Made by a program: the position numbers and the translations under genes. Of a stretch of DNA of 64,000 bases, positions 8,880-61,653 are shown one piece after another. The stretch lies in contig CAVVLG010000002.1 in NCBI GenBank assembly GCA_963749085.1, positions 370,085-434,084 on the forward strand, in the 5' to 3' direction. The notes beneath the pieces are model-generated. The model made no database searches, was not told the origin of the DNA, and saw only the letters and a program-made list of their open reading frames with translations. This DNA comes from Candidatus Adlerbacteria bacterium (GTDB lineage Bacteria; Patescibacteriota; Minisyncoccia; Phycocordibacterales; SBAW01). Numbering within the stretch: the stretch's first letter is position 1; the number at the start of each line of letters is the position of its first letter.

Positions 8880-11399
8880 TCAATGTTTGAGTGCTTGAAG
8901 GCTCTGCCCCTGCTGACCTTTTTTACTCATATTTGCTTGATGTTCAGGTGTATTCAAGGCGCCACAACGCTTCCATTTTTTACCGGAACCGCAGGGACAG
9001 GGGTCGTTACGTCCTATTTCGCGCTGACCTCCTTTCGCATCGGGAACCTGCAGCGTGATGACCGGCGTTTGCTGATGTGAGGCTATCGGTGCGTTGGAGA
9101 TTTTCTCCTTAGTGAGGCCTCCAATAAGCTCAAACACCCGCGCTACGAGCAGCATCTCCATCTCTTTGTAGATCCGGGTGCCTTCTTTGCGGTACTCCAC
9201 GAGAGGATCTCGCTGGCCGTAGGCGCGCAGATTAACCGAACCGCGCAAATATTCCATGGACTCCAAATGCTCCACCCACAGCAAGTCGAGTGTTTGAAGT
9301 ACGATGGTACGTGTGACGGCGAGCAACTGTTCCTGCCCGAGTTCTTCTTCTTTTTTGGTGATGAGCTCGCGCGCTTCTTCATTCTCTCCCGCCAAATCAG
9401 CGAGCACCGCCGCCACATCCTCGGGCGTGCCGGTGAGTATGGTATTGCGACGCGCATAAATGGCGCGTCGCTGCTTGTCTAACACGTTATCGTATTCGAG
9501 CACATGCTTGCGCGCGTCGAAATTAAAACCCTCTATTTTCGTCTGCGCGTTTTCAAGGGCGCGCGTGACCATCGAATTTTCAATGGGTTCGTCCTCCGGG
9601 ATGCCGAACCGGCCCATCAGATTCTTGATGGTGTCGGAGGCGAACACCCGCATCAGATTATCTTCAAGCGACACGAAGAAGCGTGTCTCCCCCGCATCTC
9701 CCTGGCGGCCCGAGCGGCCGCGCAGCTGGTTGTCGATGCGCCGCGCCTCGTGGCGCTCGGTGCCGAGCACGTAGAGTCCGCCGAGCGATTTTACTTCTTC
9801 GTATTGTTCAGGAGAGGCCATGGCGCCCCCGAGCTTGATATCAACCCCGCGGCCAGCCATATTGGTCGCGACGGTGACTTTCCCCTTGTGCCCCGCCGAG
9901 GCGACAATTTCGCCCTCACGTTCGTGGTTTTTAGCATTAAGGATCTCGTGTGGAACGCCCTCGCGTTTTAAATACGCGGAGAGCAGTTCATTTTTCTCGA
10001 TGGAGACCGTGCCGATGAGCACCGGCTGTCCTTTGTCGTGCAAGGCTTTGACCGTGCGGGCGATAGCGGCGAACTTGCCGTTCTCGGTTTGAAAGATAAG
10101 GTCGTTGTCGTCCTTGCGGGTGACCTCCCGGTTGGTCGGTATATCGACCACCTCAAGCCCGTAGACCTTGTAGAACTCCTCGGCGGAGGTTTTTGCGGTG
10201 CCGGTCATGCCGGAGAGCTTGTCGTAGAGCCTGAAATAATTCTGATAGGTTATCGAGGCGAATGTGCGCGATTCCTTTTGCACCGCGACTCCCTCCTTGG
10301 CTTCAATAGCCTGATGGAGTCCCTCACTCCAGCGGCGCCCGGGCTGGAGGCGCCCTGTAAATTCATCGACAATGATGACTTCCCCGCCTTTGACCACATA
10401 CTCCTTGTCGCGACGAAAGAGCGCTTTGGCGCGCACCGCGGTCTCCAGGTGGTGAACATATTTTATTCCTTTTTCGGTATAGATATTGTCGATGCCAAGC
10501 AACGTCTCGGCATGTTCGATACCTTGGTCGGTCAGCTGTATCGCTTTCAGCTTTTCATCGACGGTAAAATCCTCTTCAGGTTTGAGCTGCGAGGCGATGC
10601 GCGCGAAGGTACGATAGAGATCTTCGGACTCCTGTGTGGGCGCGGAGATGATAAGCGGGGTACGGGCCTCATCGATGAGGATAGAGTCTATCTCGTCGAC
10701 GATGGCGTAGGCGTGTCCCCGTTGGCGCAGGTCCTCCGGCTTATAGGAAATGTTGTCGCGCAGGTAATCGAAGCCAAATTCCGAGTTGGTGCCGTAGGTG
10801 ATGTCGGCCTCGTACGCTTCTCGCCTCGTTGAGGGCCGCAAAAATTCGTAAAAAATCCTGAAGCTCCCTTCTTCGTCGCGCATGGCGTCCACCTCCTTGT
10901 GCCCTGGGTCGTAACGGTACGACTCGTTGCCGTTGATGACGCCGACCGAGAGACCGAGGGCGGCATATACCTGTCCCATCCATACCGCGTCGCGGCGCGC
11001 AAGATAATCGTTAACCGTGACCACATGCACGCCTCTATTGGTAAGCGCGTTGAGGTAGGCCGGCAGCGTGGCGACGAGTGTTTTGCCCTCGCCGGTCTTC
11101 ATCTCCGCGATGCCGCGGTTGTGGAGCACGTAGCCGCCGATAAGCTGCACGTCAAAAGGCCGAAGCTTCACCGTGCGGGCGGCAACCTCCCGCACCGCCG
11201 CGAACGCCTCAGGGAGTATATCCTCAAGGGTATCGCCCGCGGACAGGCGGTTGCGAAAGTGGTGGGTTTTCTCCCTGAGCGCTTCATCGCTGAGACGGCG
11301 ATATTCCTCCTCAAGCGTATTCACTGCCTCAACCACGGGCGCTGCGGCCTTCAACATAGCAGAGGAGGGGTCCCCGAAGAGGCTTTTGAACGAAAACAT
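8880..11399 (-). CDS. secA: Preprotein translocase ATPase SecA
   Basis: ORF 8880..11459 (859 aa); canonical N-terminus MFSFKSLFGDPSSAMLK begins at ATG 11399; DEAD motor, C-terminal Zn finger CPCGSGKKWKRC. Confidence 0.95.
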   Translation of the reverse strand: MFSFKSLFGDPSSAMLKAAAPVVEAVNTLEEEYRRLSDEALREKTHHFRNRLSAGDTLEDILPEAFAAVREVAARTVKLRPFDVQLIGGYVLHNRGIAEMKTGEGKTLVATLPAYLNALTNRGVHVVTVNDYLARRDAVWMGQVYAALGLSVGVINGNESYRYDPGHKEVDAMRDEEGSFRIFYEFLRPSTRREAYEADITYGTNSEFGFDYLRDNISYKPEDLRQRGHAYAIVDEIDSILIDEARTPLIISAPTQESEDLYRTFARIASQLKPEEDFTVDEKLKAIQLTDQGIEHAETLLGIDNIYTEKGIKYVHHLETAVRAKALFRRDKEYVVKGGEVIIVDEFTGRLQPGRRWSEGLHQAIEAKEGVAVQKESRTFASITYQNYFRLYDKLSGMTGTAKTSAEEFYKVYGLEVVDIPTNREVTRKDDNDLIFQTENGKFAAIARTVKALHDKGQPVLIGTVSIEKNELLSAYLKREGVPHEILNAKNHEREGEIVASAGHKGKVTVATNMAGRGVDIKLGGAMASPEQYEEVKSLGGLYVLGTERHEARRIDNQLRGRSGRQGDAGETRFFVSLEDNLMRVFASDTIKNLMGRFGIPEDEPIENSMVTRALENAQTKIEGFNFDARKHVLEYDNVLDKQRRAIYARRNTILTGTPEDVAAVLADLAGENEEARELITKKEEELGQEQLLAVTRTIVLQTLDLLWVEHLESMEYLRGSVNLRAYGQRDPLVEYRKEGTRIYKEMEMLLVARVFELIGGLTKEKISNAPIASHQQTPVITLQVPDAKGGQREIGRNDPCPCGSGKKWKRCGALNTPEHQANMSKKGQQGQSLQALKH

Positions 11400-45460: not shown

Positions 45461-45850
45461 GCTTAGTTGTTAATCAACTGGAGCGGGCACTTTTGTACCA
45501 AAAAGCCCACCACGTGAGTGAGGGCTTGCGCCCTCCGTATCGGTTTCCCGATACGGCCGGTAAAGACAAATCCCACGCGATGGGGTTTTTGGTCTTTACC
45601 GGTCCACCGACCATATCGTCCGGCAGTATGCCAAACGGGTTAGGTCGTTGCCCTCGCGGGCTATTCAGTTGTGGCTTCATGATATAGCAGGTCGCCATAT
45701 CCGCATAGGGTCAGGCGGAGCAAGTGCCCAGTAGCTTTTAGGGACCAATTCGCGCCACAGAGGACCCCAACAAGCCACAAGGGGTGCAAAACATGGGCGG
45801 GGTGTGGGTAGCTCCACTTCCCCGCCAGTATCCGATATAGTCATGTCTGT

Positions 45851-46450
45851 ATGGCTATGCCAGAGACACGAACGGAGTTGCTCGAGGTGTTAATCAAAAG
45901 CCTCCAGCCGGAGGAGAAAATTGAGGAGCAAAAAAGCTACCGTTACGTTATCTATGCCCGCAAATCAACCGATGATAAAGAAAAACAAGTACGCTCACTA
46001 TCCGACCAGATCGCCGAGTGCAGAGAATATGCCGAAAGAAATGGACTTAGGGTCGGGAAAGACGATGTAATTCAGGAGTCGGAAAGCGCAAAACAGGCTG
46101 ATACGCGCCCGAAATTCCGCATGATGCTCGAGACACTAAAGGCGGGCAAGTACGACGGCATCCTCGCATGGCACCCCGACCGCCTCGCGCGCAACATGAA
46201 AGACGCTGGAGAAATTATAGATCTGCTCGACAAACACATCATCAAAGCGCTCAGGTTCGTGAGTTTTTCCTTCGAAAATACGCCGAGTGGCAAGATGCTC
46301 CTCGGGATTACCTTCGTGTTGTCAAAACAATATAGCGATCAACTAAGTGAGAATGTGAGCCGTGGCAACAAGCGCAGTATCGAGGAGGGCAAATACGTCG
46401 GTCGGGCGAAACATGGTTATTATAAAGACCCCAGTGGCTATCTCCGCCAG
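45851..46450 (+). pseudogene. Large serine recombinase, N-terminal fragment (resolvase catalytic domain + start of recombinase domain) truncated at tRNA-Leu
   Basis: YVIYARKSTDDKEKQVRSLSDQ (catalytic Ser), WHPDRLARN; ...GKYVGRAKHGYYKDPSGYL begins recombinase domain; ORF track extends to 46558 only by reading through the antisense of tRNA-Leu. Confidence 0.65.
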
Positions 46451-46532
46451 TGGGCATGGGGAGACTCGAACTCCCAAGTCTTGCGACATACGCTTCTGAG
46501 ACGTACGCGTATACCAATTCCGCCACATGCCC
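46451..46532 (-). tRNA. tRNA-Leu: tRNA-Leu (anticodon CAG), class II with 13-nt variable arm
   Basis: Hand-folded cloverleaf: GGGCATG/CATGCCC acceptor, anticodon stem TACGT/GCGTA with loop CTCAGAA, T-arm GGGAG-TTCGAGT-CTCCC; no encoded CCA. Confidence 0.75.
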
Positions 46533-46929
46533 GTGATCTTTACCTTACACCAAAATAGGTGATGCAGGACGAATGCCTTTAGCCGGTAGTTTCGGCATTG
46601 ACAGGTTTGACTAACTGCCCTGCATGTGGACAAGCTGTGGAAAAACTGGTGATAAAAGCTCGTTCACAGACTTTACATAAGACGTGTATATTATGGCGGT
46701 GTACACCCGGTAGGTTCTGAGAAGCTGCGTTCTTCCTGCAGTTTCTGAAGTCGCGGGAGAGGAAGGGGCAGTCGGGTCCGTGACTGCATCTGGCGTATTG
46801 AGCCTACTCTGTTACGGGTGTACCTCGGCTGTCCCTTCCATTCAAACAGAGGGTTCCCGTTTGTACCGGCATCGTGTACACCTGTGCCGGTACTGCCAGG
46901 AGCCCGGATAGTCGGCATAGCGTACACCT

Positions 46930-48898
46930 ATGTCCCCTTCCCTGGAACCCCAAGGTTACACGCTGCCGGTAGGCACCAACTTATACGTATCTTTTATGCG
47001 CACGATACGTCAACAGGATATCGTTTCTTTTCTTGCCGTCTTTATTTCCATACTGGTCGCGATCAAATTAAACCAGTACATCTTTTTTCATTTCAATACC
47101 AGCCCGGCGATCATTTTTCTGCCGACAGGTATCGCGCTGGCGGCGGTCTATCTGGGAGGCTATCGCATGTGGGTACCTATAGCCGCTGCATGGTTTCTTG
47201 GCTCGGTGACCAGTTTCTCGCACCCTACTCTCGTAGTGGATGCCGCGGCCACGGTCGGCTACACGCTTGAAGCGGTCATCGGCGGGTATGCACTTGCACG
47301 CCTGAAATTTGTAGGTGATCTGGCACGCACCCGTGACGCCTTTATACTCATCGCCGCTTCCTTGTTGCTTCCCGTCATCGCGCCAAGCATCACCGCGAGT
47401 GTACAGTGGCTGACCCATGCGCTCCCCAGCTCAGTGTGGGTGACGTGGAGCCGCGCGTGGGCCGGAGGCGCACTGAACATACTCGTGTTATTGCCGCTCA
47501 TCACCACCTGGTATAGAGATCGTACAACAAAAACTTTTAGAAAACTGCTTGAAATTACTCTGGCTCTCCTCGCCCTCGCGTTCGTTACCTATCTGGTCTT
47601 TTGGAGCCCGCTTGTGCAGGCTAATGGATTCATTGTGTTGTATGCGCTCTTTGCTATCTTGTTTTGGATAGGATTACGGATGCACCCCAGAATTATTACG
47701 ACTGCCGTGTTCCTAGTCATGCTGCTCAGCTTCGCCGGTAGCCTCATTGCCCGCCCCACCACAACAACGAAGCTTGATCAACAGCTGCTTTCCGATGAAT
47801 TGTTTATCGTTCTCATCGTCCCCATATTTTTAATTCTCGCCGCATTGGTGGAAGAGCGTCGGGTGAAAGAGCGGGAACTTGAAGAAGCGATCGATAAGCT
47901 TTCGCAGGAAGACCAGGCAAAAAATGAATTCCTGGCGACGCTTGCGCATGAGTTGCGCAACCCCCTGGCCCCGATAGTGAGTTCGCTTGAACTCATGAGA
48001 CTGGAGGCTCGGCAGTTGGCTCGACCTAATCTTATGCAGCTCATTGACGTCACCGACCGGTATAATGCGATGATTGTTCATTTACTTGATGATCTTTTGG
48101 ATATTTCCCGCATATCACACAGGAAGTTCAAGCTCCAAAAGGAAAGCTTGGAGTTGCGCCCAGTTGTCGAACACGCGGTACGGACGGTCGATGCTATGTA
48201 CAAAGCCAACAACCACACGCTCTCCGTATCAATGCCGGAGGAGACATTATGGATCGAGGCGGACCCCCTGCGGCTAAGGCAGATCCTTATCAATCTCCTC
48301 AACAATGCCGCAAAATATACCAACCCAGGAGGGAATATTGTATTAAGCGTCGTGTTTGACCCGGATCGTGGCTTGCGCATCAGTGTGAGAGATAACGGGG
48401 TGGGGATCGAACCGCACATGCTGAAGAAAATCTTCGAGCCGTTCGTGCAGTCGGATGAGAGCAGGTCGGGGCTCGGCATTGGACTTTCACTGACTAATCA
48501 TCTGGTGAACCTTCACGATGGCGTAGTGTGGGCGGAGAGCGAAGGATTGGGCAGAGGAAGCGATTTCATCGTAGTCTTGCCCGGCGCTGACAGAGTGCGG
48601 TTGCCACTTCGGGTAGCAACCCCAAAACGCCGCCGAAGAGAATTTCCTTTCATCGGAAAAAGGAGCCAACGAAAACGCTCTATTCTCATTGTTGATGACA
48701 ACAAAGCCGCGGCAGAGAGCCTCGGCAAACTGCTGGAGCACGGCAGTCATACCGTCGCGTTTGCCTATGACGGGTCGAGTGCGATTGCAAAAATGAAGAA
48801 TGCCGAAGCGGACGCGGTACTGCTCGACATTGAACTTCCTGATATGGACGGATATGAGGTCGCACGAAGTTTGCGGCAAGAACATGGTTACAATTCTC
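46930..48898 (+). CDS. Hybrid sensor histidine kinase (MASE1-like membrane sensor, HisKA, HATPase_c, C-terminal receiver) - receiver domain interrupted by IS insertion
   Basis: ORF 46930..48927; EFLATLAHELRNPLAPI (H-box), GLGIGLSL, receiver start RSILIVDDNKAAAESL...LDIELPDMDGYEVARSLRQEHGYNSL then IS; more likely start MRTIRQQ at 46996. Confidence 0.8.
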
Positions 48899-48965
48899 TA
48901 GAACCAATCTCAAAAATACCGTTGTAGACTAAAGGCACAGGGCGTTACCCGTAATTTGCCTGCCC

Positions 48966-49508
48966 ATGCCTCTCACCAACGAGCAGTGGAGCGTCATCGC
49001 TCCGTTTGTCACACCCCTCAAGCGTTTGGAAACCCGCGGCCGTCCCCGGCAGGACGACCGCAAGATACTGGAAGGTATCCTCTGGGCACTGAAGACCGGC
49101 GCCCAGTGGAAGCACCTGCCGAAAGACTACCCGCCCTACCAGACCTGCCATCGCAGGTTCCAGCAGTGGGTGGAGAGCGGCGCCTTTGACCGCATCGTCG
49201 AAGCCCTGGCCATGGACATGGAATACCGGGGGCGCATCAAGCTCAGGAGCTGCTTTCTCGATGCCACCTTCGCGGGGGCAAAAAAGGGGGTCTTGGCGTG
49301 GGACCCACGAAGCGTGGGAAAGGCACCAAGATCATGGCGATTGCGGACGAAGGCTCTCTTCCAGTCGCCGTCTATGTGGCCTCTGCTTCTCCGAGCGAAG
49401 TCCGGTTGGTTGAAGACACGCTTGCCCGGCGATTTACCCGACAGAATCCGCTTCGCCTCACGGCTGACCGAGCATATGATTCCGATCCGCTGGATGGAAC
49501 GCTCCTGA
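48966..49508 (+). CDS. IS5-family transposase OrfA (N-terminal DUF4096-like part)
   Basis: 180-aa ORF; slippery heptamer A AAA AAG at 49280..49286 allows -1 shift into OrfB. Confidence 0.75.
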   Translation: MPLTNEQWSVIAPFVTPLKRLETRGRPRQDDRKILEGILWALKTGAQWKHLPKDYPPYQTCHRRFQQWVESGAFDRIVEALAMDMEYRGRIKLRSCFLDATFAGAKKGVLAWDPRSVGKAPRSWRLRTKALFQSPSMWPLLLRAKSGWLKTRLPGDLPDRIRFASRLTEHMIPIRWMERS

Positions 49509-49738
49509 ACAAATACCGCATCAAACTCATTTCACCGCATCGCAGAGGCCGGGTGCGCAGAGCAACACAGGACGGCAGGGCGCTGCGCTCCTACAAGCGC
49601 CGGTGGAAGATTGAGCGGCTGTTCGCGTGGATGCACAACTGGAGAAAGCTCGTGACTCGCTACGAATACAAACTGCAGAACTTTGCCGCCTTCGTGAAGC
49701 TCGCGTGCATCATGCTATTACTCAAACATTATTTTTGA
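49298..49738 (+). CDS. IS5-family transposase OrfB (DDE domain), expressed as OrfAB fusion by -1 frameshift
   Basis: 146-aa ORF in -1 frame relative to OrfA; predicted fusion ...DATFAGAKKGGLGVGPTKRGKGTKIMAIADEG... Confidence 0.75.
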   Translation: MGPTKRGKGTKIMAIADEGSLPVAVYVASASPSEVRLVEDTLARRFTRQNPLRLTADRAYDSDPLDGTLLNKYRIKLISPHRRGRVRRATQDGRALRSYKRRWKIERLFAWMHNWRKLVTRYEYKLQNFAAFVKLACIMLLLKHYF

Positions 49739-49749
49739 GACTGGTTCTA

Positions 49750-50646: not shown

Positions 50647-50772
50647 ACTTAGGCGTCCCGGTCGGGGGCACTGGCATGCGCGGATATTTGAATGACGTTC
50701 GAACCGTCATTCTATAGGGGAAGACTGAGTTTAGCTATAAGCCGCTTACGCTGATGGCAAAGGTGACACAGC
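50647..50772 (+). repeat. ~125-bp repeat element, copy A (direct repeat of 54659..54784, ~80% identity), contains hairpin GAATGACG-TTCGAAC-CGTCATTC
   Basis: By-eye alignment cccggtcgggggcacYggcRtgYgcggatatttgaatgacgtYcgaaccRtcattcta...ctgagttt...cttacg...atggcRaagg. Confidence 0.6.
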
Positions 50773-51016: not shown

Positions 51017-51271
51017 ATGCGGATTATCCGCACACTGAAGTTTGAAAAGATGCCCGAACGGCTGCCCGCATCCGTACAAAAGGCGTACGTCGAGCAAGAA
51101 ACGATTTTGCAGGGGAATCCCAAAGATCCTCGCCTCCATTTGAAGAAATTGCAAGGGATTTATGACACCTATTCCTTCCGCATAACCCGCTCTTACCGAG
51201 CACTTTTCATTTGGGAAGTTAATACCGTCTGGCTGTTCGCCATCGGTGATCGAAAAGACATTTATCGATAG
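51017..51271 (+). CDS. relE: Type II toxin, RelE/ParE superfamily
   Basis: 84 aa; KDPRLHLKKLQGIYDTYSFRITRSYRALFIWEVNTVWLFAIGDRKDIY. Confidence 0.7.
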   Translation: MRIIRTLKFEKMPERLPASVQKAYVEQETILQGNPKDPRLHLKKLQGIYDTYSFRITRSYRALFIWEVNTVWLFAIGDRKDIYR

Positions 51272-54347: not shown

Positions 54348-54550
54348 CCGCTTTTATTTAAAAAGAAAAAGATAGAGGGACAGGAGCACCAGCACAATAA
54401 GTGAGGTTTGCATCACGAGTGCAGAATCCCACAGCGATACACCGAACACGATTACTGCGCCGATAAGCGGGAGCACTCCTGTGGTGATGTTTTTCATACA
54501 GCTAAGTATATCAGGTTATTTTTAGAGCTCGTACTCATCTTCTTCTATCT

Positions 54551-54566
54551 TATGACGGCGCTAGGG
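54551..54566. repeat. 16-nt copy of the tRNA-Ile 3' end (gcgctagggatcgaac): att-site-like remnant
   Basis: Identical to 57957..57972 within the intact tRNA-Ile gene. Confidence 0.45.
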
Positions 54567-54658
54567 ATCGAACTAAGAAAACGCTTTCGTTGAGCCATAA
54601 AAAATTTTGAGCAAAAAAGGGCGAACTGGACATGTCCAAAAAATGGCTCTGTTGAGCC

Positions 54659-54784
54659 ATCCCGGTCGGGGGCACCGGCGTGTGCGGATATTTGAATGAC
54701 GTCCGAACCATCATTCTACGGGGAAAAACTGAGTTTGGGTATAAACCACTTACGTTAATGGCGAAGGCAGTGCAGGGTGATTGA
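54659..54784 (+). repeat. ~125-bp repeat element, copy B (see 50647..50772)
   Basis: Same as copy A. Confidence 0.6.
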
Positions 54785-54810
54785 GTCTACCCAGCCAGAT
54801 TTTGTTGAAA

Positions 54811-55041
54811 TCAACTTAACCACTCTCCTTCAGGTATGCCTGACTGTTTGATTATCGAGCTTAATGTCTTAGGGTGGATGGTATCAGATCCATGATATTG
54901 CACATGGGTCATGCGTAGCTGTCCATCCTTGAATCCCCGAAAATAATGGTGGCTTCCCCGAATGTGATGGGGAACGAAACTATTCGCCTTTAGAAATTTC
55001 TCTACATCCTTGAAGGTCCAGTTTGATTTACCTCTAGGCAT
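54811..55041 (-). CDS. hicA: Type II toxin HicA (mRNA interferase)
   Basis: 76 aa; KDVEKFLKANSFVPHHIRGSHHYF...IHPKTLSSIIKQSGIPEGE. Confidence 0.8.
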   Translation of the reverse strand: MPRGKSNWTFKDVEKFLKANSFVPHHIRGSHHYFRGFKDGQLRMTHVQYHGSDTIHPKTLSSIIKQSGIPEGEWLS

Positions 55042-55386
55042 TTACACAGTGGCAAGACTTGCAACACCCGCTTTGTAGATGCCCGAAAGCGGGGATAGAA
55101 CGTTCCCCTTGTCTTTTACTGCTTGTGTTTGTGTGGCGGATGCCCACTTTGATTCATATTCCTCCTCCACGTCCTGATTGAGAATTGAATTGACCTGTTG
55201 CGGACGAAAACCTTTCAATTCCCTTGCTGACTCAAGGTATCCCTGCACAGCCTCCTGCAGTTCAAATTCAACTATTTTCGGGTCAATCCCCGTGACCACG
55301 ATGTTGAATTCAAGCGCCACGCCCACCCAGGAGTCGCCATCCTTAAAGATCATCCAACGGTATACACCACTTTTTGCCGTATTCAT
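55042..55386 (-). CDS. hicB: HicB antitoxin (UPF0150/RNase H-like fold)
   Basis: 114 aa; YRWMIFKDGDSWVGVALEFNIVVTGIDPKIVEFELQEAVQGYLESAREL; immediately upstream of hicA. Confidence 0.65.
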   Translation of the reverse strand: MNTAKSGVYRWMIFKDGDSWVGVALEFNIVVTGIDPKIVEFELQEAVQGYLESARELKGFRPQQVNSILNQDVEEEYESKWASATQTQAVKDKGNVLSPLSGIYKAGVASLATV

Positions 55387-55603
55387 GGGATCAGTCTACC
55401 ACAAACGAGCCCCTCCCGTGAAGGAGGGGCTCTCGGAGGCCGAAGCCACTTGTAGTCAGACGGTACACCTTGGCAGATGAAAAGCAAGTGTATCCAGGGT
55501 TGCCACAATCGAGAGAGAAAGCCGGTCGTCTGCGAGATGAATCTCACAAATCGACCGGTCTTTTTGCCGTGCGTCTCAACTCTATCATTTCCCCCAATGA
55601 GGC

Positions 55604-55816
55604 TTAGATGCGGATCATTCTTCCGGGACGGCGGATGGCGTACGCAGGTGGCTTGGGGTGTCGGTGTAGCGGATAGCGAAGCATTTTGTAGACGTCAAAA
55701 ATTCTTTTGAATTCTTTTTTCACGCCAGTGAAGGTCTTTGCCTGCACGGCGATATCGCGTTCGATGCATTGACCGACCCACCATCTGGATTCGCGAAAGA
55801 CGATTGCGCGCATATC
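55604..55816 (-). CDS. HicB-like antitoxin-domain protein (short)
   Basis: ORF 55604..55927; MRAIVFRESRWWVGQCIERDIAVQAKTFTGVKKEFKRIF resembles HicB core. Confidence 0.35.
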   Translation of the reverse strand, partial: DMRAIVFRESRWWVGQCIERDIAVQAKTFTGVKKEFKRIFDVYKMLRYPLHRHPKPPAYAIRRPGRMIRI

Positions 55817-56051
55817 ACGACCCATTTTCGATAGAGTTGACGATGTTATAACCAGGCCAATTGGATTTGCCGTCCTCTTTAAACCACCACACTGAGGACA
55901 TAAGGCCTCCTTGCGTTGACGTGTCAACGCCGATTCTTCGGATGATCCGCGTGCAGTCTGGAAAGTTCGGTGTGCCTTTTGGGTGTGCCTCTACTAGTTC
56001 ACATGGTTCCCCGTTTTCAAACTGGATTGACTTTGTCCAATCGAGTGGCAT
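55815..56051 (-). CDS. Hypothetical small protein (possible toxin partner)
   Basis: 78-aa ORF overlapping start of HicB-like gene. Confidence 0.3.
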   Translation of the reverse strand: MPLDWTKSIQFENGEPCELVEAHPKGTPNFPDCTRIIRRIGVDTSTQGGLMSSVWWFKEDGKSNWPGYNIVNSIENGS

Positions 56052-56198
56052 GGTTCTCCTCCAAAGTGTTGGTTGCTTCTAAAGAAAATATACCATGGTC
56101 AGATTAAATTCTTGTCCCCTGGTTGCACAGGGTCGCGGGAAAATCCCGAATGTAGTTCCAGTATAGCATTAAGGATTTAACCATCAAAAAACACCACG

Positions 56199-56384
56199 AT
56201 GAGATACGCTCACTTAGCCCCCTCAACGCTTCGAGCCGCCATCAACCAGTTGAACCCGAAAGCAATGATTTCTGGAAGTTTTGGGCAACCGGTGGTCAAC
56301 CGATGGATTGAGACAGTGCAACAAGAAACAAAAAATCCTTTACCTGCAACGCAAAATTTACAAAAAAATTTGTGCGGGCGCTAG
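56199..56384 (+). pseudogene. Tyrosine-integrase 3'-terminal fragment (~50 aa, contains catalytic-Tyr region MRYAHLAPSTLRAAI)
   Basis: Near-identical to the C-terminus of the 57238..57921 integrase remnant; followed at 56380..56410 by a degraded copy of the tRNA-Ile 3' end. Confidence 0.6.
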
Positions 56385-56410
56385 GATCGAACCCAGTCGC
56401 AACAATTCTG
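56380..56410 (-). repeat. Degraded copy of tRNA-Ile 3' end (T-arm + acceptor; ggttcgatcc-tagcgcccgcac): att-site remnant
   Basis: Compare with 57952..57980. Confidence 0.55.
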
Positions 56411-56736
56411 AAGAAGCGCCAATCGAGCAAGAGAAATAAGGATTAATGGCTTAAACTAAAGGATTACTGACAAAATGTAAGATTACCAATCGTACTCACT
56501 AACTACCAAGTTTAACCAACTTTTATCACTTTTTGGGCAACCCGTGGGCAACCGCGGAATTATCAAAAAGGAACAGTACAGGGGGAAAAGTGATAAAGAT
56601 TGTGTGGAAAACACTGCTAGGCGGTGGTTTTTATGCTGTGTGTTTTTTACCGGCTTTGGTGGGTGACTAAGTGAACACTCTCTCAAGGGAAATCCGCCGT
56701 TCTGCTACGTTAAAGAGAGTTTCGGCCACAACCGAA

Positions 56737-57006
56737 TCAAAACTTCAATTTATATATCCAGTCGTGCGGACCGATGGTGAGAAAGAGCGCCGTATTGCCG
56801 TCGATAAAGCGTAGCGCGATGCGGTAGCTCCTGTCGACACGGATACTCCAAATCTCCTTGCTCTTGGGTTCAAGCTTCTCGGTGTGGAGCGACGGATAAA
56901 AGGGATTTGTGCGGAACAAAGCTTCCTGCTTCTCGGCCTTCTTTTGAACAGCTGTAGGTAGTTTGAGATACCGCTTTCGGAACTCATCCGTTACCACCAC
57001 GTCCAT
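56737..57006 (-). CDS. Type II toxin, RelE/ParE superfamily
   Basis: 89 aa; HTEKLEPKSKEIWSIRVDRSYRIALRFIDGNTALFLTIGPHDWIYK. Confidence 0.6.
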   Translation of the reverse strand: MDVVVTDEFRKRYLKLPTAVQKKAEKQEALFRTNPFYPSLHTEKLEPKSKEIWSIRVDRSYRIALRFIDGNTALFLTIGPHDWIYKLKF

Positions 57007-57015
57007 AAACAGCGA

Positions 57016-57222
57016 CTATTTTCGCCTAAGCTCGCGCAGCGAGGTGACTGTATATACCCGCCCGGCGCGGTAGTCCCGCTCGGCCCGCTCGATACTGCGC
57101 AGAAAATCAGGATTGTAGAACCCGAGGTTGGAGGCAAGACGCTCCAGCCGATCGGCGTCGAGCTCCACTAGCACCTTCTTCCCCTTCGATCCAGGGCGGA
57201 TAGTTATCATCGTCTTGCTCAT
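57016..57222 (-). CDS. Putative antitoxin partner
   Basis: 68-aa ORF directly upstream of toxin. Confidence 0.4.
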   Translation of the reverse strand: MSKTMITIRPGSKGKKVLVELDADRLERLASNLGFYNPDFLRSIERAERDYRAGRVYTVTSLRELRRK

Positions 57223-57237
57223 AGAGCTAGTATAGCA

Positions 57238-57921
57238 TAGTCCCCTTGTACGGTCATTTTTACGCGTACCTGGCTCAAATGTCCTCCACCGAAAACCGAT
57301 TATCTGTCGAAAGACGAATGCGGATTACTGCTATCTCATGCACGCGGCGTCGTATACGAGATGCTACTACTCGCCCTCCGCACGGGCATGAGGCGCGGTG
57401 AAATTATCGGCCTGCAGTGGTCATCCGTTGATTGGCAGACCCAGAACATCACGGTGCGGCATTCATATTGCGAGTACACGAAAGAGTTAGGCTCAACGAA
57501 AAGCAACCGCGAACGGCATATCCCTATGGACGCGGACGTATACGCAGTCCTCTTCAACAGAAAGCGCGACACGGGCTATGTATTCGTGGACGCAGATAAT
57601 AAGCACTTCAATGGCAGATATCTTGAGCGTCGACTAAAAGAACTCTGTAACCAAGTTGGATTGCGCAATATCGGATGGCATACGCTGCGACACACGTTTG
57701 CTTCGCACTTAGCGATGAGTGGAGTACCGCTCAACGCCGTGCAAGCACTCCTAGGTCACTCCGCCATCACTACCACGATGCGATACGCGCACTTAGCACC
57801 CTCAACGCTTCGAGCCGCTATCGACCAGCTGAACCCAAAATCAATGATTACTGACAGTTTTGGGCAACCGGTGGGCAACCAGTGGGTTGAGACATTGCAG
57901 CAAAAAACAAAAAATCCATAA
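57238..57921 (+). pseudogene. Tyrosine recombinase/integrase, 5'-truncated (catalytic domain only; no N-terminal arm/core-binding domain or start codon)
   Basis: In-frame ...YLSKDECGLLLSHARGVVYEMLLLALRTGMRRGEIIGLQW...WHTLRHTFASHLAMSGVPLNAVQALLGHSAITTTMRYAHLAP (R..HxxR..Y); frame opens right after a stop at 57235. Confidence 0.7.
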
Positions 57922-57951
57922 CGTGCAACACAAAATCGACAAAAAAATTTG

Positions 57952-58024
57952 TGCGGGCGCTAGGGATCGAACCTAGGACCTTTCGAGTATCAGTCGAATG
58001 CTCTACCAACTGAGCTACACCCGC
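57952..58024 (-). tRNA. tRNA-Ile: tRNA-Ile (anticodon GAU)
   Basis: Hand-folded: GCGGGTG/CGCCCGC acceptor, D-arm GCTC-AGTTGGTA-GAGC, anticodon stem TTCGA/TCGAA loop CTGATAC, T-arm CTAGG-TTCGATC-CCTAG. Confidence 0.85.
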
Positions 58025-58732: not shown

Positions 58733-59583
58733 TAGAACCAGTCTCAAAAATAATGTTTGAGTAATAGCATGATGCACGCGAGCTTCACGAAGGCGGCAAA
58801 GTTCTGCAGTTTGTATTCGTAGCGAGTCACGAGCTTTCTCCAGTTGTGCATCCACGCGAACAGCCGCTCAATCTTCCACCGGCGCTTGTAGGAGCGCAGC
58901 GCCCTGCCGTCCTGTGTTGCTCTGCGCACCCGGCCTCTGCGATGCGGTGAAATGAGTTTGATGCGGTATTTGTTCAGGAGCGTTCCATCCAGCGGATCGG
59001 AATCATATGCTCGGTCAGCCGTGAGGCGAAGCGGATTCTGTCGGGTAAATCGCCGGGCAAGCGTGTCTTCAACCAACCGGACTTCGCTCGGAGAAGCAGA
59101 GGCCACATAGACGGCGACTGGAAGAGAGCCTTCGTCCGCAATCGCCATGATCTTGGTGCCTTTCCCACGCTTCGTGGGTCCCACGCCAAGACCCCCTTTT
59201 TTGCCCCCGCGAAGGTGGCATCGAGAAAGCAGCTCCTGAGCTTGATGCGCCCCCGGTATTCCATGTCCATGGCCAGGGCTTCGACGATGCGGTCAAAGGC
59301 GCCGCTCTCCACCCACTGCTGGAACCTGCGATGGCAGGTCTGGTAGGGCGGGTAGTCTTTCGGCAGGTGCTTCCACTGGGCGCCGGTCTTCAGTGCCCAG
59401 AGGATACCTTCCAGTATCTTGCGGTCGTCCTGCCGGGGACGGCCGCGGGTTTCCAAACGCTTGAGGGGTGTGACAAACGGAGCGATGACGCTCCACTGCT
59501 CGTTGGTGAGAGGCATGGGCAGGCAAATTACGGGTAACGCCCTGTGCCTTTAGTCTACAACGGTATTTTTGAGATTGGTTCTA
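58733..59583 (-). mobile_element. IS5-family insertion sequence, copy 2 (inverted relative to copy 1), flanked tTA...TAg
   Basis: OrfA 58974..59516 and OrfB 58744..59184 identical to copy 1. Confidence 0.85.
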
Positions 59584-59742
59584 GGAGCTTTAACCGCCAT
59601 TGGTCTTCGACGAGCTTGTGATGCCGGTCATGGCAGTTCATTCGCTACTCCTCGGTTGCCGCGGGACCACCCCACGAAAAACTATCCTACTGAGCTGAAT
59701 CTACCACGTTCCTTATTTTAAACAATGACTACAGTGGATAAC

Positions 59743-60019: not shown

Positions 60020-61478
<1,459 letters not shown>

Positions 61479-61653
61479 GAATATAAGATTCAGTTACGAA
61501 TCTAGACTCGATGAACGGAACAAGAGAAAAGTGTCTTCTCTTGTTTTTCTTGCTTGCTGCCTTTGCCAGTTGAATGGCAAAGGACTTATTTTTTGATCGG
61601 TGTGATCAATTCTTACAATTTTCTCAATTACGTATTCAGTTTTCAACGAACAA

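Follow-up and report, generated by a model that had tools for sequence, protein, structure and literature searches.

Why should one bacterial tRNA gene be followed by further copies of its own 3′ end, by two pieces of integrase gene and by small operons of toxin-antitoxin (TA) type? We asked this of a 64,000-nt stretch of DNA (hereafter the window) from contig CAVVLG010000002.1 of Candidatus Adlerbacteria bacterium (Patescibacteria; assembly GCA_963749085.1), in which the gene is tRNA-Ile(GAU). A sequence-only reading made earlier had proposed repeated site-specific integrations at this tRNA, followed by loss of everything except the addiction modules. Our analysis leads us to read positions 54550–57973 as a tandem array of decayed integrative elements at the tRNA-Ile(GAU) 3′ end, with a probability of roughly 0.8. 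Tandem site-specific integration and internal deletion, leaving two tRNA-proximal remnants, is well supported.

The tRNA target and the adjacent integrase

The integration target, an intact tRNA-Ile(GAU) gene, lies at 57952–58024 on the minus strand, where the sequence-only reading had placed it; ARAGORN and Rfam (RF00005, 74.5 bits) agree. Its last 22 nt (57952–57973) are taken from the sequence as the attachment (att) core, here attL. Integrase 1, a 5′-truncated open frame on the plus strand that matches Pfam Phage_integrase (PF00589, 113.6 bits, 1e-32), converges on this 3′ end. That a truncated tyrosine integrase abuts the tRNA is borne out by Pfam and by 373-aa relatives; its frame runs from 57241, not 57238 as first given, to 57921. 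It corresponds to residues 159–373 of a 373-aa tyrosine integrase, residues 1–158 being gone, and homology to the full-length relatives starts at nt 57274, with 80% identity. The 215-codon catalytic domain contains no internal stop and keeps the catalytic R, HxxR, and Y motifs. Within the 3′ coding end (FGQPVGN), at 57862–57879 on the plus strand, is the P-arm copy of a repeated motif, GGGCAACCGGTGGGCAAC, which consists of two GGGCAACC units 11 nt apart and is conserved in every aligned locus. An integrase beside an intact tRNA 3′ end, with direct repeats of that end farther off, is the geometry of a tRNA-targeting integrative element.

The middle copy is a hybrid junction

Comparison of the window with itself revealed a direct repeat of 205 nt (56193–56396 vs. 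57772–57976; 87.3% nucleotide identity, E = 1e-67), the two copies being 1.58 kb apart. The two integrase fragments are thereby related at the nucleotide level. The repeat contains the last 49 integrase codons, a 28-nt spacer, and the last 22 nt of tRNA-Ile, with one G deleted in the middle copy. The integrase 2 3′ fragment with its P-arm spacer occupies 56193–56372 on the plus strand; its coding part, 56193–56339, corresponds to residues 325–373, the stop codon is lost, and a copy of the motif, GGGCAACCGGTGGTCAAC, lies at 56283–56300. A second integrase fragment had been seen before, at 56199–56384 and with about 90% identity over 50 aa; the fragment is real, with the limits given here and 82% amino acid identity to integrase 1 over 49 aa. 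The degraded tRNA 3′ end that was said to follow it is also present, at 56373–56396 instead of 56380–56410, with one G deleted and one mismatch. This middle core is a junction, with remnant 2 on its left and remnant 1 on its right.

To the right of the core is a P′ arm of about 250 nt (56397–56650, plus strand; nhmmer, 1.6e-49; covariance model, 103 bits), which belongs to remnant 1. The middle copy is therefore a complete attP-like junction of integrase 3′ end, core, and P′ arm. The motif in this P′ arm is the variant of integrase 1 (GGGCAAC) and not that of integrase 2 (GGTCAAC), which matches the prediction of a tandem model. Beyond a mere degraded tRNA end, the middle copy is a hybrid junction, P of element 2/core/P′ of element 1, as a tandem array requires.

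A 205-nt repeat whose direct copies lie only 1.58 kb apart could also have come from local segmental duplication of the integrase and tRNA 3′ ends, and not from a second integration. What lies to the right of the middle copy, however, is not tRNA or host DNA but a full P′ arm with homologues in about 20 independent loci, and 13% divergence beside an otherwise intact integrase 1 frame and P′ element favors two parents. We consider such a duplication very improbable.

Attachment-site architecture in related loci

The comparison set comprised 80 genomic integrase loci and several metagenomic ones. The integrases form a large, uncharacterized environmental clade with >4700 homologous proteins and a full length of about 373 aa. 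Phage and plasmid origins of the clade were considered and rejected: the best identity to a viral contig was 37%, apart from short C-terminal matches, and identity to PLSDB plasmids was <30%.

In locus L083, window positions 56193–56555 align as one colinear block with an integrase 3′ end and the DNA after it, and the attP core there is exactly the tRNA-Ile 3′ end of the window. Window positions 56434–56632 match the same position downstream of the integrase in L003, L004, L006 (Bradyrhizobium), L007 (Devosia), L008, and L013. A nucleotide hidden Markov model, and then a covariance model, recovered this P′ arm in 17–21 loci. Between the integrase stop codon and the P′ arm stand about 24 nt that resemble a tRNA 3′ end and always stop in the T-loop (...TCGAA), so that the core spans from the discriminator to the T-loop. 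Judged by sequence, the contiguous block of integrase end, core, and P′ arm has the structure of an attP, with P arm, core, and P′ arm.

The integrase and the P′ element (the structured part of the P′ arm, described below) are contiguous in most of the 21 loci that match the covariance model. They are separated in the window, L005, and L014, the three Patescibacteria cases that show the split, integrated form. One of these is L014, with an intact element of 10.4 kb: perfect 24-nt direct repeats lie at 306–329 and 10711–10734, the latter inside tRNA-Gly(GCC), the integrase ends beside this tRNA, and the P′ element (434–533) is at the far end. In L005 the integrase abuts tRNA-Ile and the P′ arm is 8.3 kb away. 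The clade integrase neighbors tRNA-Gly, tRNA-Ser, or tmRNA in Patescibacteria loci, and abuts tRNA-Thr in a Rhizomicrobium locus (L021).

Intact relatives measure 8–10 kb and carry a replication protein (Rep), an excisionase (Xis), and cargo. As replication protein, L014 encodes a rolling-circle Rep and L005 an AAA_25 helicase-like protein; L014, L002, L083, L084, and L085 have an HTH_17 excisionase; and the cargo includes type III restriction-modification, QatABCD/GmrSD, or metal-resistance genes. All of these are missing from the array. No conjugation or mobilization genes were seen in the intact relatives, which have Rep, Xis, and integrase (Int) only.

A proposed history of tandem integration and internal deletion

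These observations suggest the following history. Each element would have had an attP made of the integrase 3′ end (P arm), a tRNA-end core of about 24 nt, and a P′ arm of about 250 nt. Strand exchange in the core would leave the integrase abutting a tRNA with a 3′ end restored by the element, and would carry the P′ arm to the opposite boundary, where a tRNA-end copy precedes it, as L014 shows. Two related elements (13% DNA divergence over the shared 205 nt) would have integrated at the same site; such divergence between the integrase ends implies two distinct parents. Double integration would have left the hybrid junction int2-P/core/P′1 at 56193–56650, and each element would later have lost its middle. 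For remnant 1 (56373–57973, 1.6 kb), a single deletion with end points at integrase codon 158 and the relBE-like operon promoter would suffice.

The earlier proposal of repeated integration at one tRNA is strongly supported for the two proximal units, by the hybrid junction, the roughly 20 colinear loci, and L014, but not fully for the distal copy, which no P′ arm of the family follows. Internal deletion, also proposed, is supported by size and content: intact relatives of 8–10 kb with Rep, Xis, and cargo, vs. 1.6 kb for remnant 1 and at most 1.8 kb for remnant 2. That only addiction modules were left is an overstatement. Remnant 1 keeps its P′ arm, an operon of a 68-aa open reading frame (ORF) and a RelE/ParE-like toxin, the integrase catalytic domain (215 codons), and the P arm, and nothing else; its att arms are complete. 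In remnant 2, the final 49 integrase codons survive together with a unit of two ORFs of 78 and 69 aa and with hicAB. A complete integrase, with N-terminal arm-binding and core-binding domains, was not found for either fragment (integrase 1 lacks residues 1–158 and integrase 2 lacks 1–324), and an HTH_17 excisionase gene is absent from the array, though relatives carry one. With both integrases truncated and no HTH_17 gene, these are remnants and not functional elements. Remnant 1, having both arms complete, might in principle be excised by a related integrase in the manner of a cis-mobilizable element (CIME).

The retained operons

The RelE/ParE-like toxin of remnant 1 (89 aa; 56737–57006, minus strand) is identified by Pfam ParE_like (25.6 bits, cut-off 24.4), a HigB-like match (26.7 bits), and PHROG 1213 (RelE-like, 4e-8). 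Directly upstream on the same strand is the 68-aa ORF (57016–57222), a candidate antitoxin, which ends 9 nt before the toxin start codon and has a weak, sub-threshold match to DUF2683. Of the relE-like pair previously reported at 56737–57222, the toxin is thus secure by Pfam and PHROG and the partner stays a candidate. In remnant 2, HicA (76 aa; 54811–55041, minus strand) matches Pfam PF07927 HicA_toxin with 47.9 bits (cut-off 27), and a HicB-fold antitoxin candidate of 114 aa (55042–55386, minus strand) abuts it. HicAB, as called before, is accordingly confirmed in both its HicA domain and its adjacent HicB-fold partner. TA activity of the HicAB and RelE-like modules is predicted.

A further “HicB-like pair” had been counted as a TA module. 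Its two ORFs exist, as coupled minus-strand frames of 78 aa (55815–56051) and 69 aa (55604–55813) separated by stop, 1 nt, start, and neither has a recognizable toxin or antitoxin family or fold, so the pair does not count as a verified TA. Nine homologues of the pair were found, and in one relative the two ORFs are joined as the halves of one protein of 137 aa. The confidently modeled N-terminal part is predicted to be an SH3/Tudor-like barrel. Searches of Pfam, NCBIfam, PHROGs, and PDB sequences gave no family for the antitoxin candidates or for this pair.

Besides these, an orphan RelE-like ORF (PHROG 1213) lies at 51017–51271 on the plus strand and is 38% identical to the toxin at 56737–57006.

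The deletion end-points coincide with the promoters of the two small leftward operons. A 17-nt promoter-like motif with an extended −10, ATGCTATACT on the minus strand, occurs at 56153–56169 and at 57222–57238; its copies precede both operons, exactly where the adjacent integrase fragment is truncated. This is as expected if deletions into an antitoxin operon were lethal, and selection against loss of the antitoxin genes would explain where the deletions ended.

The same coincidence, both truncation points lying 2–24 nt from one promoter-like motif (TAGnnCnAGTATAGCAT), could be taken to mean that the small operons were not original cargo but arrived as mobile TA cassettes, whose insertion truncated the integrase genes; hicAB homologues do occur in non-mobile contexts in relatives. 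On the other side of the operons, however, the N-terminal integrase parts are absent. Neither target duplications nor cassette ends were seen, and a single deletion explains all of remnant 1. We give the cassette explanation little credence and retain internal deletion.

The outer boundary and the weight of the tandem reading

The third copy of the tRNA-Ile 3′ end had been reported as 16 nt at 54551–54566. The copy is confirmed and is longer, 54550–54573, with 21 of 24 positions matching and an exact run of 17/17 at 54557–54573; a 17-mer with up to two mismatches is expected by chance 0.02 times per window. Its end point in the T-loop is that of the other cores, evidence that this is a real att remnant.

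Several points weigh against the reading of the whole interval as one tandem array. Two concern this copy: it differs at three of seven acceptor-stem positions, and no P′ arm of the family lies to the right of 54573, by the covariance model run without filters or by nhmmer. With these mismatches and the missing arm, the outer boundary of the array is not proven. The distal copy and the hicAB segment could then derive from a third, unrelated element that targeted tRNA-Ile, which would reduce remnant 2 to a stub of about 200 nt (56193–56396). The deviant acceptor part and the lack of a P′ arm or structured element would fit this, as would the flank, which instead holds a 108-nt coding relic repeated at 50656–50763. 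The T-loop end point, on the other hand, is that of the clade, and deletion of a P′ arm is an equally simple explanation. A third element is possible, though we doubt it; most likely the distal copy is the outer att remnant of the array, with its own P′ arm deleted or of another type.

A further point is that the structure does not tell which of the two elements integrated first. Nor can structure alone separate stacking at this tRNA in this lineage from acquisition, in one step, of a composite tandem (a decayed element with a newer one) that integrated once, and among other integrative elements accreted tandems have been documented to transfer as a whole (PMC5704250). A one-step origin would still presuppose that tandem integration had taken place before, at a tRNA-Ile sharing this core; it shifts the place and not the nature of the event, and the 13% divergence of the integrase ends again speaks for two distinct parents. 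We regard one-step acquisition as unlikely and keep to stacking at this tRNA.

The related loci raise another objection. At least 14 non-Patescibacteria loci have integrase, core, and P′ arm contiguous and no flanking direct repeat within 10 kb; contiguity is seen in the mostly non-Patescibacteria L001, L003, L004, L006–L010, L012, L013, L016, L020, L025, L083, and L084, even on contigs of 0.2–2.4 Mb, and none of the tRNAs neighboring the contiguous loci (in Alphaproteobacteria and others) matches the core. That the contiguous form always represents an unintegrated attP is thus not proven. Furthermore, neither the antitoxin of the RelE-like toxin nor the second ORF pair has family support.

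Finally, the comparison yielded no near-identical genome in which the site is empty, the closest neighbors being 70–81% identical in the adjacent gene. We compared 80 metagenomic loci (L086–L165) that encode the neighboring AdoMet decarboxylase (57–81% identity). The tRNA-Ile(GAU) gene is kept beside this gene in >50 of the 80, and the integrase and TA genes of the window are in none of them; among the genomes sampled, the island is specific to this one. Candidatus Taylorbacteria and Adlerbacteria are among the nearest named hits, and the contig names of the relatives point to groundwater, in keeping with a Patescibacteria (Paceibacteria-like) host. In many relatives tRNA-Leu(CAG) directly follows tRNA-Ile, with a spacer of 1 nt to 5 kb whose longer forms hold murA, purN, purT, or NUDIX genes; in the window the distance is 11.4 kb. 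These relatives were rejected as evidence of an empty site, being too distant; all they show is that the interval between tRNA-Ile and tRNA-Leu varies and that housekeeping genes usually occupy it. The polarity implied by the word “insertion” hence rests on distant relatives (≤81% amino acid identity) without the island.

A structured element in the P′ arm

Within the P′ arm, positions 56520–56633 form a structured element. A long, A/U-rich stem, P1 (56521–56533 paired with 56586–56598), encloses stem P2 (56542–56547 paired with 56552–56557), which encloses a further hairpin, P3, in most loci and is closed by a GCAA loop in the window. The motif GGGCAACCCGTGGGCAAC lies at 56535–56552, and a terminator scan found a terminator-like hairpin at 56612–56626 with a T run after it. 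The structure was set by hand and then evaluated with a covariance model and pair counts on a model-guided alignment of 21 sequences. In this alignment, which was fitted to the model, 88% of cells are paired (vs. 39–50% in slid controls), and changes on both sides occur in 26 of 28 pairs, the observed values being reached in 0/500 shuffles. Folded singly, nearly every sequence adopts the fold on its own. RNAalifold on the raw MAFFT alignment of the arm was discarded; it predicted almost nothing because indels were misplaced. Many pairs are U-G, which indicates that the strand that folds has the same sense as int. Three unpaired motifs, UGGGCAAC, AAUUAUCA, and CAGUACAGG, are near-invariant, and the element is conserved across Alphaproteobacteria, Patescibacteria, and other metagenome-assembled genomes. 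Rfam 15 contains no family for it in gathering or E-value mode: the window gave only a chance hairpin (mir-184, E = 2.8) and L004 gave none.

A 20-mer of the P′ arm, TTGGGCAACCnGTGGkCAAC, recurs about 252 or 297 nt upstream, within the end of the integrase coding sequence (FGQPVGN). The two copies of a locus have rare variants in common (22/22 identical in L012; 23–24 nt in L003 and L004). We infer that the paired 20-mers are putative arm-type sites of the integrase.

In phage lambda, the sib region is a structured element with a terminator that lies just past the attP core, downstream of int, and adjoins int only when excised; it acts by retroregulation, in which read-through int mRNA is destabilized in an RNase III-dependent manner. 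The P′ element is likewise downstream of int beyond the attP core, and integration moves it to the other end of the element. It differs from sib in having no sequence relation to it, in its strongly conserved unpaired motifs, and in the 20-mer repeated inside int. By analogy, the int transcript would end in the fold and its terminator only in the excised state, and a sib-like effect on int expression or RNase III processing is putative; the P′ element may also have a role as single-stranded DNA. Taken together, these features permit a wider proposal that we put forward tentatively: the P′ element would be an undescribed cis-acting RNA of the integrase clade (a state sensor, or a sib-like 3′ untranslated region joined to int only when excised), the 20-mers would be paired arm sites, and remnant 1 would be a minimal TA cassette that can still be mobilized, not dead DNA.

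Neighboring features

One copy of the 108-nt repeat (54660–54767 vs. 50656–50763; 85% identical) lies beside the distal att copy and the other upstream of the orphan RelE-like ORF. It reads as about 36 C-terminal codons (…PVGGTG.CGYLNDVRT.IL.GKTEF.YKPLTLMAK), substitutions fall mainly in third positions, and one copy has an in-frame stop. An RNA was rejected, fold z-scores being no better than those of shuffles, and Pfam gave no match. The substitution pattern and the reading frame indicate a coding relic.

Upstream of tRNA-Ile(GAU), at a distance of 2 kb and likewise on the minus strand, is a 16S rRNA gene (60020–61485); a copy of an insertion sequence (IS) and the AdoMet decarboxylase gene, the latter on the opposite strand, stand between the two. 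No tRNA-Ala or 23S gene follows the 16S gene within the window, so that the rRNA operon is unlinked or disrupted. There are two inverted IS copies of 852 bp, 100% identical (48898–49749 and 58733–59584), each of which encodes an IS5-like transposase in two ORFs and is bounded by terminal inverted repeats of 25 nt. A hybrid histidine-kinase/receiver gene is interrupted by one copy, and the other lies between the AdoMet decarboxylase and 16S rRNA genes; the IS was therefore active recently. Inversion between them was rejected because the halves of the interrupted kinase gene are colinear.

At the neighboring tRNA-Leu(CAG) (46451–46532, minus strand), a large serine recombinase gene (CcrB/XisF-like by NCBIfam; 45851–46558, plus strand), of which the first 200 codons are present, runs straight into the tRNA 3′ end. 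This fragment represents another truncated integrative remnant, of a different kind from the first; within the window, the tRNA-Leu end was not found repeated. A LOOT RNA (RF03000, 82.8 bits) lies beside it at 45520–45646 on the minus strand.

Comparison with known systems

The array documents, at the level of single bases, accretion and decay at a tRNA gene in a genome of the candidate phyla radiation, a group whose mobile elements are poorly described. It also defines the attP architecture of a very large and uncharacterized integrase clade, with a tRNA-end core that stops in the T-loop, 20-mers paired across the two arms, and the structured P′ element, and it provides a concrete case of deletion end-points that stop at TA operon promoters, in line with the prediction of the addiction model. 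Current understanding is not overturned by any of these points; only the structured P′ element could lead to a new question, and it alone is novel, mildly so.

The closest parallel is accretion among integrative and conjugative elements (ICEs), integrative and mobilizable elements (IMEs), and CIMEs, such as the ICESt1-related elements of Streptococcus thermophilus, in which integration occurs at a tRNA 3′ end and a second element enters the resident att site, creating a chimeric internal att site (PMC5704250). CIMEs arise when deletions leave the att sites and remove the recombination and transfer genes (PMC5704250). The array shares with these the tRNA 3′-end target, the chimeric internal att site, and decayed remnants flanked by att sites. 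Remnant 1 has the structure of a CIME, extending from core and complete P′ arm (56373–56650) to P arm and core (57772–57973) with the integrase truncated, and its mobilization by a related integrase is putative. It differs in its Patescibacteria host, in intact relatives that have only Rep, Xis, and Int, and in the extremely small size of remnant 1 (1.6 kb).

The ssrA islands of Dehalococcoides are also in tandem downstream of one small-RNA gene and are delimited by direct repeats of about 20 nt of its 3′ end (PMC3146451); their insertion point is in the T-loop, and some lack integration genes (PMC3146451). Those arrays depend on a serine recombinase and tmRNA, whereas here a tyrosine integrase and tRNA-Ile are involved and the remnants are far more reduced. 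Type II TA modules as cargo of integrated elements, with loss of the module counter-selected, are represented by mosAT of SXT (PMC2654960) and HipAB of a Shewanella composite island (PMC8978831). In contrast to such stabilization, the elements here are gone and the predicted TA operons are left. Tandem accretion at tRNA or tmRNA genes with decay to CIMEs, and TA-mediated retention of integrated elements, are already known, and this array is a clear and rather complete further example in an unusual host.

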